Virus record (IMG/VR): IMGVR_UViG_2579778842_000018
Coordinates: 1-11,653 of that record
Length of the DNA: 11,653 bases
Direction: 5' to 3' (one strand)
DNA from: a virus
Lineage: Duplodnaviria; Heunggongvirae; Uroviricota; Caudoviricetes
The notes below the pieces were generated by a model that saw nothing but the letters and a program-made list of their open reading frames with translations, did not search any database and was not told the DNA's origin. Of the stretch, positions 2,941 to 6,177 are shown in pieces. The position numbers and the translations under genes are program-made. Numbering within the stretch: position 1 is the first letter of the stretch; each line of letters starts with the position of its first letter.

Positions 2941-3017
2941 TTACCCCCGAGGTAATTAAAAACCACATAAGACACGAAATCAATAGATTTTAGAATATTT
3001 TATTACCTAACAGGTAA
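2941..3017. promoter_or_regulatory. Two palindromic operator-like sites (TTACC-N5-GGTAA) between the P-like and DUF1064 genes
   Basis: 2941-2955 TTACCcccgaGGTAA overlaps the DUF1064 RBS and start; 3003-3017 TTACCtaacaGGTAA with flanking A/T gives the 17-bp palindrome ATTACC-N5-GGTAAT. Confidence 0.4.
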
Positions 3018-3054
3018 TTATCGAGACGTAAAAAAATGCGCTATCGCGCTGGTA

Positions 3055-3855
3055 TTACTTGATAAATCCTGACGCCTTTCCCCGCCTGTATTCCTCCATC
3101 AGCCACTGCGCCGGTGTTATTCCCCCCAGGGTGGCGGCGTTAGGCATACACCCGAAACTTCGCCCTGGTGGATGGTAAACGTCTCTCCCTGTGTCCGGAG
3201 GCGTACTCATGGGTTCTGGCTTTGCCTGTATGCTGATCACCGGATCGGGTATCTGCTGTCCGGAAGCCACCTTTTTCGCCCAATCATCGAGCAGCCTGCG
3301 CGCATGTTTCTCAACCTCAATCTCGCTAAGCTGGCGCTGATACATTGCACGGCGGGTATCACATACGACCCAGTACATAACCGGATGCCGCCACGGGAAT
3401 CTTTCGGGACCACCAGGATATAAACTTTTTTCCTTGCTGTACCGGTGAAACTCCGCCATCACATCGTCAATGGTGACGCCAAGAACCATCTTGCTGTCTT
3501 TACACCACTTGATGAATTGCCCTGGCGACGGCCAGAACGGAGATTCACTGGCGCGGGCGTGGCGCATACCAGCAGAAACCTGTTCACGGGTTCGGATCCC
3601 CCCTTCGGCAAACGCAGCAATCCACTGCTGTTTTGCAGCAACTTCCTGCTCTGGCGTCTTCAGGTTGGTTACCACTGCCGCCGGAAACAGTTGTTTCAAC
3701 TGTTTGAAAAGGGCATCAACAAGCCTCTCTGCTGACATGTTCACCACGTTGTCATTGTTAGTGTACTGATGCTCATAACCTGACATGCGAGAAAGGGCTT
3801 CTCCGTCACGGTTTTGTATCGCGGTAAAAACGTTGTTCACAAGAAATCTTCCCAT
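3055..3855 (-). CDS. Replication protein P-like (lambda P homologue, DnaB helicase loader), 266 aa
   Basis: Segment GGIRTREQVSAGMRHARASESPFWPSPGQFIKWC closely parallels lambda P NGITTMEQVNAGMRVARRQNRPFLPSPGQFVAWC as I recall it, with further collinear similarity. Sits immediately downstream of the O-like gene and overlaps its end by 19 nt. Start codon choice uncertain. Confidence 0.8.
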   Translation of the reverse strand: MGRFLVNNVFTAIQNRDGEALSRMSGYEHQYTNNDNVVNMSAERLVDALFKQLKQLFPAAVVTNLKTPEQEVAAKQQWIAAFAEGGIRTREQVSAGMRHARASESPFWPSPGQFIKWCKDSKMVLGVTIDDVMAEFHRYSKEKSLYPGGPERFPWRHPVMYWVVCDTRRAMYQRQLSEIEVEKHARRLLDDWAKKVASGQQIPDPVISIQAKPEPMSTPPDTGRDVYHPPGRSFGCMPNAATLGGITPAQWLMEEYRRGKASGFIK

Positions 3856-4688
3856 GCTTCAGGGCTGTTCCAGTGCGGAACGTTGTTATCAGGTAATGTT
3901 GATTGCTTCTGTCTGCTAATCTGCAGCCGCCTTGCCAGCTTCTGCTCCCACTGTGCCTGATGGTATGCCTTACCCTCAGCCATCCAGTAAATTCTGAACT
4001 CTGCAAGTTCCTGTGCCGTTGGCAGACTGTCCAGGTAGATCCCCTGCAATGAGCTTTTCCGAAGAAAGTCATCTGATGGCTGCCATTGTTCATGCATGAC
4101 AAATTTGCCTAATTGCCCTGGCCCACCAGGAGGAACAAAGTTATTCATCACGGCGTTGTTTGCGCCGGGGTCATGAGGCACAGAATCCCCGTTTTTTGTC
4201 CTGCTCTCCCTCTCTTGGTTAAATGACTGGTTATATGACTGGTTCTGGATCCCGTTTTTGGGATCATTCAACATCCCGTTTTTGGGATCATTCAACATCC
4301 CGTTTTTGGGTATATTCCCGTTTTCGGTAACATTACCGTTTTCGGTAACATTACCGTTTTCGGTAACATTACCGTTTTCGGGTTCATTGCCCCCCTCCCG
4401 GTTGCCTTTAATGTTCCCGTTTTTGGTTATATTAAGAGAGAAAACCCGCACTCTTTTTGTCGCTCCCTTTCTCTCTCCGGTATCTGAAATAAGCCCCATT
4501 TTCATGAGCGATATAAGCCCGGCCTGCACGGTTTTTTTATTCAGACAAGTGTCTTTAACGAGACGTTCTATGCTGGGGTAGCAGAGGTTATATTCATCGG
4601 CTCTGTCAGCCATCGAGAGCAGTATGAGCTTTAATGACGAGCTACCTGGATCTGTCTCCCAGGCCCAATCTGTTGCATGTCTGCTCAT
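3837..4688 (-). CDS. Replication initiator O-like protein (N-terminal winged-HTH, repetitive linker encoded by iterons), 283 aa
   Basis: ATG at 4688 with GGAG RBS. N-terminal HTH-like segment LKLILLSMADRADEYNLCYPSIERLVKDTCLNKKTVQAGLISLMKMGLI; central repeats ENGNVTENGNVTENGN / KNGMLNDPKNGMLNDP encoded by the DNA iterons; position directly upstream of the P-like gene as in lambda O-P. Confidence 0.75.
   Translation of the reverse strand: MSRHATDWAWETDPGSSSLKLILLSMADRADEYNLCYPSIERLVKDTCLNKKTVQAGLISLMKMGLISDTGERKGATKRVRVFSLNITKNGNIKGNREGGNEPENGNVTENGNVTENGNVTENGNIPKNGMLNDPKNGMLNDPKNGIQNQSYNQSFNQERESRTKNGDSVPHDPGANNAVMNNFVPPGGPGQLGKFVMHEQWQPSDDFLRKSSLQGIYLDSLPTAQELAEFRIYWMAEGKAYHQAQWEQKLARRLQISRQKQSTLPDNNVPHWNSPEAWEDFL
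4251..4433. repeat. Iteron array (about 8 direct repeats of 18-24 bp) inside the O-like gene: putative phage replication origin
   Basis: Two 24-bp copies CCCGTTTTTGGGATCATTCAACAT (4251-4274, 4275-4298), then 18-bp units CCCGTTTTTGGGTATATT (4299-4316), CCCGTTTTCGGTAACATT (4317-4334), ACCGTTTTCGGTAACATT (4335-4352, 4353-4370), ACCGTTTTCGGGTTCATT (4371-4388) and CCCGTTTTTGGTTATATT (4416-4433). Confidence 0.75.
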
Positions 4689-4703
4689 GATTAATCTCCG
4701 CTA

Positions 4704-4940
4704 TCAGCTTGAATGTTGTGGGGAGGAATTAATCATGATCTGCTTAATCTCTGCCCTGATGCGACGGTTTGATTCCATGGTGCACTCAACACAGTGTCCG
4801 TTGTAAACCCAGCGTTCACTGTCATGTCCGTGCTTACATGGTTTTCCGGTGTAGTAGCGTTTAAGTCCGCGCTTTGCGGCATCAATACGTGTAATGATTT
4901 CCATGGTAAGCCCTGTTATTAGTATTGGGATTACGGTCAT
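4704..4940 (-). CDS. Small zinc-finger protein of unknown function (possible early regulator), about 78 aa
   Basis: ORF between the Cro-like gene and the O-like gene; Cys/His cluster KPCKHGHDSERWVYNGHCVEC. Start uncertain: ATG at 4967, 4940 or 4904, none with a strong RBS. Confidence 0.45.
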   Translation of the reverse strand: MTVIPILITGLTMEIITRIDAAKRGLKRYYTGKPCKHGHDSERWVYNGHCVECTMESNRRIRAEIKQIMINSSPQHSS

Positions 4941-4984
4941 TTTGTGCTGACACAAAAAAAAGATCAACCAGATTTGGTTTTTTA

Positions 4985-4999
4985 TTACCTTTGAGGTAC
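4985..4999. promoter_or_regulatory. Operator-like site, imperfect (TTACCtttgaGGTAC)
   Basis: Same half-site and 5-bp spacing as the other sites, with one mismatch in the right half; lies between the terminator after the Cro-like gene and the zinc-finger gene. Confidence 0.35.
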
Positions 5000-5009
5000 G
5001 AATAGATAT

Positions 5010-5033
5010 GAAAAGACCGCCGGGTGGCGGTCT
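5010..5033 (-). terminator. Stem-loop terminator downstream of the Cro-like gene (tR1-like position)
   Basis: Perfect 8-bp inverted repeat AGACCGCC-GGGT-GGCGGTCT at 5014-5033; the minus-strand RNA continues with UUUU (plus strand AAAA 5010-5013). It lies 22 bp past the Cro-like stop. Confidence 0.5.
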
Positions 5034-5285: not shown

Positions 5286-5331
5286 AGCTATTGCCTGATA
5301 TTTATTTCAGATAATAAATATTCACCCATAA

Positions 5332-5384
5332 GGTAACAAAAATCAAGGATAGTTACCTATGAGGTGCATTTACCTGTTGGGTAA
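5332..5384. promoter_or_regulatory. Operator cluster in the divergent region between the Cro-like and repressor-like genes (OR-like)
   Basis: 5370-5384 TTACCtgttgGGTAA; 5353-5367 TTACCtatgaGGTGC (imperfect); GGTAAC half-site at 5332-5337. A candidate minus-strand promoter (TTGATT-N17-GAATAT) overlaps these sites. Confidence 0.45.
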
Positions 5385-5439
5385 TATTGCTTTAAATTGA
5401 ATCATCTACTGATTCATATATGAGACGATTTTCCAGAAA

Positions 5440-6024
5440 ATGAAAAGTATCCAGGACGTCCGCAGGCAAAATCTCAACGACTTGATCGACCGTGAATTCA
5501 ATGGTGTTCAGACGCGGATGGCAGAAAAACTTGGAACTCAGGCAAATCTGGTAAACCGCTGGGCTCTTGGCAAGAAGGTTATCGGCGACCAAGTTGCACG
5601 AAAAATTGAAGCTGCCGCCAATAAACCCCGTAACTGGCTTGATATCGATCGCTCGCTTTCTCAGGAAGGTTTTCAGCCTGTCGGCCCAAGCGACATTGGC
5701 CAGCTGGCGGCTCACAACCTGGAACGCTGGATGAGCGAAAGCCGCGACCTTTCAACACAGGGAAAACTTCACCGCGCATCCGGCGTAGCCCAGGTGACAA
5801 TCAGCCGCCTGTTAAACAATGAGGTCAGCGTTTCCATTTCCACCCTGGAGAATGTTGCATCCGCATTCGGGCGTCACGGCTATGAATTACTGATTCACCC
5901 GCACGACCCTGCGACCATCAACTATGATCGCTCGCGCTACGCATTGTTACCCGAAACCGAGAAAGCAAAGATCGAAAGTTACATTGAATTTGTCATCAAC
6001 CAGAACGAAAAAAACAAACAATAA
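5440..6024 (+). CDS. Tandem-HTH phage repressor-like protein (CI-like by position; no evident S24 peptidase domain), 194 aa
   Basis: Two HTH-like segments: QTRMAEKLGTQANLVNRWALGKKVIGDQVARKIEAA and LHRASGVAQVTISRLLNNEVSVSISTLENVASAFG. Flanked on both sides by the palindromic operators and followed by a terminator. No SD sequence before the ATG. No Ser-Lys/GDSM-type autoprotease motif seen. Confidence 0.7.
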   Translation: MKSIQDVRRQNLNDLIDREFNGVQTRMAEKLGTQANLVNRWALGKKVIGDQVARKIEAAANKPRNWLDIDRSLSQEGFQPVGPSDIGQLAAHNLERWMSESRDLSTQGKLHRASGVAQVTISRLLNNEVSVSISTLENVASAFGRHGYELLIHPHDPATINYDRSRYALLPETEKAKIESYIEFVINQNEKNKQ

Positions 6025-6044
6025 AACCATATTTTTCAGTAAGT

Positions 6045-6068
6045 AAGCCGCCTTATGGCGGCTTTTTT
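6045..6068 (+). terminator. Rho-independent terminator after the repressor-like gene
   Basis: AAGCCGCC-TTAT-GGCGGCTT followed by a T6 tract (6063-6068), 20 bp after the TAA stop. Confidence 0.65.
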
Positions 6069-6081
6069 ATTGCCTATTCGA

Positions 6082-6158
6082 TTACCTAACGGGTAATTTT
6101 TTTAACTCATATCTATTGACATCAAACCATATACGCATAATTATTACCTCAACGGTAA
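6082..6158 (+). promoter_or_regulatory. Early promoter with two flanking operators (PL/OL-like) driving the plus-strand early operon
   Basis: Consensus -35 TTGACA (6116-6121), 17-bp spacer, -10 AATTAT (6139-6144). Operator TTACCtaacgGGTAA (6082-6096) upstream of the -35 and TTACCtcaacGGTAA (6144-6158) overlapping the -10 and start site; extra GGTAAC half-site at 6167-6172 overlaps the RBS. Confidence 0.5.
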
Positions 6159-6177
6159 CAGACCGAGGTAACAAGTT

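Follow-up and report, generated by a model that had tools for sequence, protein, structure and literature searches.

The DNA analysed here, a window of 11,653 nucleotides, is the early region of a phiV10-like Uetakevirus, and it raises the question of what a short palindrome repeated in several of its intergenic gaps does. An earlier note had described seven copies of a 17-bp sequence, ATTACC-N5-GGTAAT, and had placed four of them around a repressor-like gene in an OL/OR layout. From sequence and homology, we consider it highly probable that these palindromes are operators of the phage's own repressor, Rep, a non-cleavable tetrameric protein of the epsilon15/SPC32H type, and that they are located at early promoters.

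We first counted the motif. Across the whole window, TTACC-N5-GGTAA occurred exactly five times in 11.65 kb (starts at 2941, 3003, 5370, 6082 and 6144), compared with 0.01 expected from shuffles, and all five were where the earlier note had put them. In an unbiased count of all 5-Nn-5 palindromes, TTACC-N5 ranked first in the window. The two imperfect copies that had been listed, at 4985 (one mismatch) and 5353 (two mismatches), were also present. All seven copies were therefore real, but the total was eight (five exact and three degenerate): a supposed GGTAAC half-site at 5332-5337 proved to be the right half of a full one-mismatch site at 5322-5336 (TCACCCATAAGGTAA). The other proposed half-site, at 6167-6172, exists but has no left partner and overlaps the RBS GAGG of the next gene. 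Likewise, the TTACC/GGTAA core of the 17-mer held, whereas its outer A/T was found at only about half of the ends.

A position weight matrix (PWM) scan, which the earlier note had proposed, was performed with a matrix trained solely on sites from three other phages. Its top eight matches in the window were exactly these eight positions, all within four intergenic gaps that make up ~5% of the window. Seven sites scored at least 12 bits (shuffle mean, 0.10); the weakest, at 5352-5368, scored 7.2 bits, and the next match in the window 5.5 bits. Two-mismatch matches in coding DNA numbered four (1143, 5161, 6667 and 10108) against 3.4 by chance, in agreement with the claimed confinement to four intergenic regions. 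The expected rarity in non-phage DNA was also borne out, with no exact copy in 100 kb of the E. coli K-12 chromosome. Across five genomes, N5 was the sole spacing present. As a separate matter of possible cross-talk with the origin, TTACC-N6-GGTAA occurs twice in the O-like gene (4333 and 4351), as a window-specific expansion of an 18-bp iteron. These copies are absent from phiV10, epsilon15, SPC32H, BUCT554 and 79 of 80 related loci, and they were rejected as part of the operator system.

Two regulatory genes are candidates for the protein that reads the motif:

5440-6024, plus strand: repressor gene Rep, 194 aa, Pfam HTH_3
5055-5285, minus strand: cro-like small regulator gene, 76 aa, PHROG 35 "transcriptional repressor" (E 9.5e-13)

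Rep has an N-terminal HTH DNA-binding domain, a middle HTH-like dimerisation domain and a C-terminal tetramerisation region. Pfam detected only HTH families in it and no Peptidase_S24; lacking that domain, Rep is not lambda-CI-like. It matched the SPC32H Rep structure (PDB 5D50) over residues 1-190 (E 4e-42) and is thus a full-length homologue. It is 100% identical to phiV10 p40, and all 80 retrieved viral contigs carry the identical repressor. It is also identical to ORF21 of phage ZX5, whose overexpression abolishes free phage and lytic transcripts (PMC9782041). According to later papers that cite Kim et al. 2016, Rep is a tetramer whose N-terminal domain binds palindromic sites. The recognition-helix segment NLVNRW is invariant among four Reps that are 42-76% identical to that of the window.

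The cro-like gene, equivalent to phiV10 p41, is divergent from the repressor gene. Three sites lie between the two:

5321-5337, unstranded: OR operator nearest the cro-like gene, TTCACCCATAAGGTAAC, one mismatch, PWM 15.1 bits
5352-5368, unstranded: middle OR operator and weakest match, GTTACCTATGAGGTGCA, two mismatches, PWM 7.2 bits
5369-5385, unstranded: OR operator nearest the repressor gene, TTTACCTGTTGGGTAAT, exact, PWM 20.3 bits
5311-5346, minus strand: PR-like promoter region, from the promoter scan

The first of these operators is embedded in the core of the PR-like promoter, which points leftward and for which there are two candidates, TTGATT(5346-5341)-17-GAATAT(5323-5318) and TTGTTA-17-TATTAT(5339-5311). 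In the alignment, the counterpart of this operator in epsilon15 and SPC32H is their third OR site, and the scan calls TTGATT-16-AATAAT across its equivalent in SPC32H. Within the PR-like region, TTGATTTTT is invariant across four genomes. A distance of 17 bp separates the middle operator from the next site; epsilon15 and SPC32H have the same spacing, and their middle site is an exact match. The operator nearest the repressor gene was invariant, and the OR spacing was 31+17 bp, in all 81 variants. No convincing promoter for the repressor gene itself (PRM) could be read from the sequence.

On the other side of the repressor gene lies the OL pair:

6045-6064, plus strand: intrinsic terminator of the repressor gene, found by scan and annotated in phiV10, just upstream of OL
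6081-6097, unstranded: distal OL operator, ATTACCTAACGGGTAAT, exact, PWM 22.4 bits
6116-6144, plus strand: PL-like promoter, TTGACA-17-AATTAT, found by scan, 10/12 consensus match
6143-6159, unstranded: proximal OL operator, ATTACCTCAACGGTAAC, exact, PWM 18.4 bits

The distal operator is 18 nt upstream of the PL -35 and is followed by a T7 run. As had been noted, the proximal operator abuts and overlaps the -10: it begins with the final two bases of that hexamer, and its centre is near the predicted PL +1. The promoter is kept in BUCT554, epsilon15 and SPC32H and is predicted to drive p39, p38, recE and recT. The two operators were 62 bp apart in 77 of 80 variants. They are orthologous to epsilon15 32616-32632 (distal) and 32554-32570 (proximal), both annotated as repressor-binding sites. 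The epsilon15 record (GenBank AY150271.2) contains seven sites annotated as protein_bind "repressor / lysogeny", including one after the replication genes; all are TTACC-N5-GGTAA, and the annotation is, as far as can be verified, itself a prediction. The proposed OL/OR layout thus matched the epsilon15 annotation and was conserved across genera, in a refined form with three sites at OR and two at OL.

The positions of the palindromes in 5' leaders and at module junctions could also suit hairpins in the RNA, with an attenuator or processing function, or scars left by recombination at module boundaries, and in BUCT554 the distal OL site with its T-run was flagged as terminator-like. However, the predicted folding energies were weak (-1.1 to -4.5 kcal/mol), across genera and in 81 variants the arms kept their sequence and showed no compensatory changes, and the spacer length was strictly 5. 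Because of the weak energies and the conserved arms, we rejected a hairpin or terminator role, and we regard this explanation as scarcely credible.

The remaining sites lie further inside the minus-strand genes. Those after the replication genes, which we call region A, are arranged as follows:

2940-2956, unstranded: proximal operator of the pair, TTTACCCCCGAGGTAAT, exact, PWM 16.2 bits
2955-2983, minus strand: predicted promoter of the DUF1064/nin-like module, TTGATT-17-TTTAAT, read from the alignment
3002-3018, unstranded: distal operator of the pair, ATTACCTAACAGGTAAT, exact, top PWM score of 23.8 bits
3030-3049, minus strand: short GC hairpin with a T7 run, following the P-like replication gene; the phiV10 record marks it as a putative terminator

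The -10-like hexamer ends within the proximal operator, which also overlaps the predicted transcription start and the RBS of the DUF1064 gene; the half-sites of this operator are invariant in the alignment with BUCT554, epsilon15 and SPC32H. The distal operator, with the -35-like TTGATT 18 nt downstream, is orthologous to epsilon15 35906-35922, annotated as protein_bind "repressor". This pair was spaced by 62 bp in all 77 variants. The hairpin is located just upstream of the pair and is kept in four genomes, although it falls below the terminator scan threshold.

Region B, after the cro-like gene, has a single weak site:

4984-5000, unstranded: weak operator, ATTACCTTTGAGGTACG, one mismatch, PWM 12.1 bits, one half-site degenerate
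5014-5033, minus strand: intrinsic terminator after the cro-like gene, found by scan, annotated in phiV10 and conserved in BUCT554

The site is placed between this terminator, which is just upstream, and a -35-like TTGATC. Relatives conserve only its ATTACC half, and no half-site varies more within the population than its other half. As poor matches, 4984-5000 and 5352-5368 may bind weakly or not at all. A degenerate proximal partner 60 bp away (~4925-4939) was seen in the alignment and was set aside, as the PWM gave it no support.

Sites so far inside the early genes might instead act as roadblocks or terminator helpers, with Rep stopping PR read-through as at mycobacteriophage stoperators. 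Every internal site group is directly downstream of a terminator-like hairpin, and the promoter-like sequences are poor: the -10 of region A has no A at the key position 2, which suggests a weak promoter, region B reaches only 8/12, and the scan called neither in the window. Nevertheless, all four aligned genomes have a -35-like TTGAYW whose distance to the operators is constant and whose register matches that at PL; in SPC32H, the scan does call the equivalent of the region A promoter, TTGAAA-18-TAAATT, abutting the proximal site; and the sites are palindromic rather than oriented. We therefore consider roadblocks unlikely and prefer to read these sites as Rep operators at promoters. The earlier description of sites inside the minus-strand operon holds as to position, but each is preceded by a terminator and is itself located at a promoter-like sequence, which suggests that the internal sites mark separate transcription units.

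We next examined relatives. The sites are syntenic in BUCT554, epsilon15, SPC32H and prophages of six further enterobacterial species, and both the OL and region A pairs are exactly 62 bp apart in all of these relatives. Among 81 E. coli variants, 5 of 80 half-site columns varied, compared with 24 of 40 spacer columns. The phiV10 genome contains 14 sites with at most one mismatch (0.65 expected), 12 of them in the intergenic 6.5% of the genome, and all 10 exact sites of SPC32H lie in its intergenic 7%. In complete genomes of relatives, the motif is also found upstream of the terminase, portal, ant/tailspike, lysis and integrase units. These late, lysis, ant/tailspike and int sites indicate that the regulon extends beyond the immunity region, as had been suggested.

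Late-operon sites in relatives could serve a lytic-phase regulator, which raises the possibility that the motif is mainly a target of the Cro-like protein (5055-5285) or another phage regulator rather than of Rep. The PHROG of the 76-aa protein consists of transcriptional repressors, and Cro and CI share operators in lambdoid phages; such use by both proteins would be compatible with the Rep-operator explanation. Against Cro as the main reader, it was the repressor to which the sites were ascribed in the epsilon15 annotation, and every locus that retains the motif has the same Rep recognition helix. The motif is missing where the Rep N-terminal domain has only a distant relative that carries another helix. 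This is the case at five loci from Paraburkholderia, Hydrogenovibrio and Thiomicrospira, whose gene product is related to Rep in the N-terminal domain alone; they showed neither the motif nor a clear palindrome of their own and are consistent with the Rep-operator explanation, though uninformative. Overall, we judge a primary role for Cro or another regulator to be very improbable.

If the palindromes are Rep operators, the N-terminal HTH domains of Rep in a lysogen would recognise the two TTACC half-sites at their fixed 5-nt spacing, and Rep would shut each early transcription unit directly. Three sites would act over the divergent PR/rep region, one pair would bracket PL, a second would do so at the promoter that follows the replication genes, and a single weak site would serve the promoter-like sequence after the cro-like gene. 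At each pair, Rep on the proximal site would cover the -10 end and transcription start and occlude RNA polymerase. As the distal site is 62 bp off, or about six helical turns, it would lie on the same DNA face as the proximal site, and a tetramer on the proximal site could perhaps also grip it with its second DNA-binding unit, although a loop of 62 bp is tight. The motif, with its enrichment, conservation and geometry, and the repressor's homology are shown directly, while binding by Rep, the identity of the promoters in regions A and B, and any cooperativity or looping are inferred. By homology, induction would involve Ant, an antirepressor under LexA control whose gene lies in another part of the phage, and not repressor cleavage. 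The phiV10 Ant homologue, in the part of the genome beyond the window, is 88% identical to SPC32H Ant and has a LexA box (CTGTATAAATACACAG) upstream.

A more far-reaching possibility, which we put forward tentatively and with some doubt, is that a single non-cleavable tetramer gates all transcription units of a 39-kb podophage, using 14 or more copies of the palindrome, with the 62-bp pairs clamping two early promoters. Each pair would bracket the -35/-10, and one tetramer could trap or exclude RNA polymerase in a very small loop. If true, this layout would stand in for lambda's antitermination cascade. We found no description of a 62-bp promoter-bracketing pair in the accessible literature, and full-text searches there yielded no operator description. 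The way in which the structurally characterised SPC32H-type tetramer engages DNA has, according to a later paper, "not been extensively characterized", and the invariant spacing of the 62-bp pairs gives a specific means of testing it.

The closest known systems are the Salmonella phages epsilon15 (GenBank AY150271.2; Kropinski et al. 2007) and SPC32H (Rep/Ant switch; Kim & Ryu 2013; Kim et al. 2016; PDB 5D4Z and 5D50), of the same genus, Uetakevirus. They share the half-sites of the window, the syntenic OL, OR and post-replication positions, and the 62-bp and 17/30-31-bp spacings. Their repressors are full-length homologues yet only 42% identical to that of the window, so that common half-sites make cross-immunity testable. 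OL has two sites in the window and three in these phages. The close relative phiV10 has the same Ant and LexA-box module as SPC32H. Unlike the epsilon15 record, which itself leaves its OR sites and proximal post-replication site unannotated, phiV10-type records have no operator annotation. The map given here supplies one for prophages that are very common in E. coli, and it predicts repressor-controlled promoters and immunity relationships. A 17-bp consensus is reported to have been given by Kropinski et al. in 2007. As a sister phage already has the same sites annotated, the operator set is ordinary; its one mildly new feature is the conserved bracketing of promoters by sites 62 bp apart, and the current understanding of phage repression is unchanged.

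As in lambda and P22, 17-bp palindromic operators flank the repressor gene, three lie between divergent repressor and cro-like genes, and sites overlap PL and PR. In contrast to CI and C2, the repressor lacks an S24 autocleavage domain. Unlike in lambda, where the operators form adjacent triplets confined to OL and OR, the two OL sites here stand on either side of the promoter at a distance of 62 bp, and further operators occur at internal early units (2940-3018 and 4984-5000) and, in relatives, at late units. Stoperators of mycobacteriophages such as L5 are asymmetric, orientation-dependent and inside transcribed regions, whereas the sites here are palindromic and beside promoter-like hexamers. 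Streptomyces phage phiC31 has 17-bp conserved inverted repeats as a multi-site repressor regulon, and N15/phiKO2 have a CB operator at repA. In phiC31, L5 and N15/phiKO2, repressors unrelated to Rep likewise use one motif over many intergenic positions beyond the immunity region.

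Megablast placed window positions 2500-6700 at ~97% identity to Escherichia phage phiV10 and a dozen related Uetakevirus genomes, all epsilon15-like temperate podophages. Gene order was taken from the phiV10 annotation, and proteins were assigned by domain searches:

2937-2593, minus: DUF1064 gene
3855-3055, minus: lambda-P-like gene
4688-3837, minus: DnaT/O-like initiator gene
4904-4704, minus: 66-aa gene
5285-5055, minus: cro-like gene, 76 aa, PHROG 35 'transcriptional repressor'
5440-6024, plus: repressor (Rep) gene, 194 aa
downstream of the repressor gene, plus: two small genes, then recE and recT

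The recE-like (273 aa, PDDEXK) and recT (313 aa) genes are separate overlapping ORFs (6629-8388), as in phage BUCT554. The phiV10 record, unlike these two, annotates a single 586-aa RecE-RecT fusion, which may be a frameshift or sequencing difference.

We then counted the palindrome TTACC-N5-GGTAA. Five exact copies (2941, 3003, 5370, 6082, and 6144) were present against 0.01 expected from dinucleotide shuffles, bearing out the exact sites listed in the earlier note, and TTACC-N5 ranked first in the window when all 5-Nn-5 palindromes were counted without bias. Allowing mismatches added 4985 (one), 5322 (one), and 5353 (two). The seven copies described previously are thus real, but the total is eight: a supposed half-site at 5332-5337 is part of the full one-mismatch site at 5322, while another at 6167-6172 is only a ribosome-binding site. 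The eight sites are all intergenic, distributed over four gaps (2938-3054, 4905-5054, 5286-5439, and 6025-6177), and coding DNA held four two-mismatch matches versus 3.4 expected by chance, in agreement with the proposed intergenic confinement. A weight-matrix scan of the window, of the kind that the earlier note had suggested, trained solely on SPC32H, epsilon15, and BUCT554 sites with those of the window excluded, returned the eight sites as its top eight. Seven scored at least 12 bits (shuffle mean, 0.10); the site at 5352-5368 was marginal at 7.2 bits, and the next-ranked window match scored 5.5. Two 50-kb pieces of the E. coli K-12 chromosome (100 kb) contained six copies with one mismatch and none that was exact.

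A near-mimic occurs inside the O-like gene, where origin-like iterons occupy 4216-4388 (12 bp × 2.4, 24 bp × 2.6, and the 18-bp ATTACCGTTTTCGGTAAC × 3.8). The 18-bp iteron forms TTACC-N6-GGTAA palindromes at 4333 and 4351, with a 6-nt spacer. Of 80 related loci, 79 lacked this expansion, as did phiV10.

Sequence variation at the sites was compared by column across the window and 80 viral contigs with an identical repressor, the 80 loci being non-independent lineages:

half-site columns: 5 of 80 variable, mean minor-allele fraction 0.005
N5 spacer columns: 24 of 40 variable, mean minor-allele fraction 0.109
flank columns: 58 of 192 variable, mean minor-allele fraction 0.029

Operator spacers (e.g. 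3008-3012, 6087-6091, and 2946-2950) were more variable than the surrounding intergenic DNA (0.109 vs 0.029 in the 81 phages). The arms were conserved in sequence, with no compensatory change between them among the 81 variants, and RNA hairpins predicted from the sites were weak (−1.1 to −4.5 kcal/mol). Conserved arms without compensation, together with weak hairpins, point to a protein that recognizes two half-sites sequence-specifically at a fixed distance. The spacing between half-sites was always 5 nt in the genomes compared.

The operators are arranged around promoters and candidate promoters as follows, in OL (downstream of rep), region A (after the replication genes), and region B (after the cro-like gene):

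6045-6064, OL: repressor terminator
6081-6097, OL: distal operator, then an 18-nt gap to the −35
6116-6121 and 6139-6144, plus, OL: promoter TTGACA, 17-nt spacer, AATTAT
6143-6159, OL: proximal operator, centred near the predicted +1
3049-3030, minus, region A: hairpin and T7 run
3018-3002, minus, region A: distal operator, then an 18-nt gap
minus, region A: candidate promoter TTGATT, 17-nt spacer, TTTAAT
2956-2940, minus, region A: proximal operator, also covering the ribosome-binding site
5033-5014, minus, region B: terminator
5000-4984, region B: operator, half-conserved
region B: weak candidate promoter TTGATC-17-CAAAAT

In region A, on the minus strand, the geometry of OL recurs. The region A candidate promoter, whose −10 lacks the key A, was not called by the promoter scan in the window; the SPC32H equivalent was called. 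Both pairs are spaced 62 bp centre to centre in phiV10, epsilon15, SPC32H, and BUCT554, a distance kept in 77 of 77 and 77 of 80 population variants for the two pairs and lying at 61-63 bp in prophages of six other species. In OR, the rep/cro-like gap, three sites are 31 and 17 bp apart (30 and 17 in epsilon15 and SPC32H), and the one nearest the cro-like gene falls inside the PR core. A T7 run directly follows the distal OL operator (6081-6104), and the BUCT554 counterpart (14642-14670) was terminator-like in the scan; this combination could help to terminate transcripts of the repressor gene or serve PL as an UP-like element.

The motif recurs throughout related phage genomes, nearly always between genes:

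phiV10: 14 sites with at most one mismatch (0.65 expected), 12 within intergenic DNA (6.5% of the genome) and 2 at the 5′ edge of terS as annotated
SPC32H: 18 sites with at most one mismatch (0.67 expected), the 10 exact copies all within intergenic DNA (7% of the genome)
BUCT554: 14 sites with at most one mismatch (0.42 expected)

The same pattern was seen in epsilon15. Syntenic sites stood at OL and OR and downstream of both the cro-like gene and the replication genes. In six further prophages, from Superficieibacter, Erwinia, Klebsiella, two Citrobacter species, and Scandinavium, whose Reps are 41-75% identical to that of the window, the motif kept its distances from the repressor gene. Beyond the window-equivalent region, relatives carry it 5′ of terS, the portal operon, and int, and in the ant-tailspike and O-antigen-modification/lysis gaps. 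The corresponding phiV10 positions (87, 105, 3252, 20497, 20877, 24692, and 26870) have equivalents in every relative examined. The earlier note was therefore right that the regulon extends beyond the immunity region, and these whole-genome scans give it a wider reach than was proposed. The motif stands 5′ of ant/tailspike and the lysis cassette as well as terS, int, and the portal operon, which suggests direct repressor control of late and integration units.

In the epsilon15 record (GenBank AY150271.2), seven protein_bind features have the bound moiety 'repressor' and the note 'lysogeny', and all seven are this motif. No such feature is given there for the three copies in OR, for the proximal site that follows the replication gene, or for a copy upstream of gp23 (9288-9442 and 11970-11984).

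Rep is 100% identical to phiV10 p40 and contains two HTH regions; the domain search found no S24 peptidase domain. Residues 1-190 align with SPC32H Rep (PDB 5D50, E 4e-42), and an NLVNRW segment in the N-terminal HTH is invariant in four Reps 42-76% identical to the Rep of the window. As described in papers citing Kim et al. (2016), SPC32H-type Rep is a tetramer with a middle dimerization and a C-terminal tetramerization domain, binds palindromes via N-terminal domains paired across dimers, and is inactivated by an antirepressor, Ant, also a tetramer; according to one of these papers, the mechanism of repression 'has not been extensively characterized'. In phage ZX5, overexpression of the identical protein eliminated free phage and lowered holin and endolysin transcripts by >99.9%, and its authors only speculated on the operator (PMC9782041). 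Outside the window-equivalent region, phiV10 p24 (20543-20837) is an Ant homologue that shares 88% identity with SPC32H Ant. Just upstream of p24 is a canonical LexA box, CTGTATAAATACACAG, adjoining the one-mismatch Rep site at 20877.

From sequence, we infer Rep binding, looping, and the region A and B promoters. Rep would occlude RNA polymerase at each transcription unit, and the in-phase 62-bp pairs would let one tetramer, with two DNA-binding units, hold both sites.

The invariant 62-bp promoter bracketing is the sole point for which we could not find a description in accessible sources; the sites themselves already have annotated counterparts in epsilon15 but carry no annotation in phiV10-type records. 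The layout resembles the lambda immunity region, but Rep lacks the lambda autocleavage domain, and whereas lambda operators are confined to OL and OR, those of the window are not. In repressor homology, motif, and syntenic placement and spacing, the window system agrees with the epsilon15/SPC32H Rep operator set.
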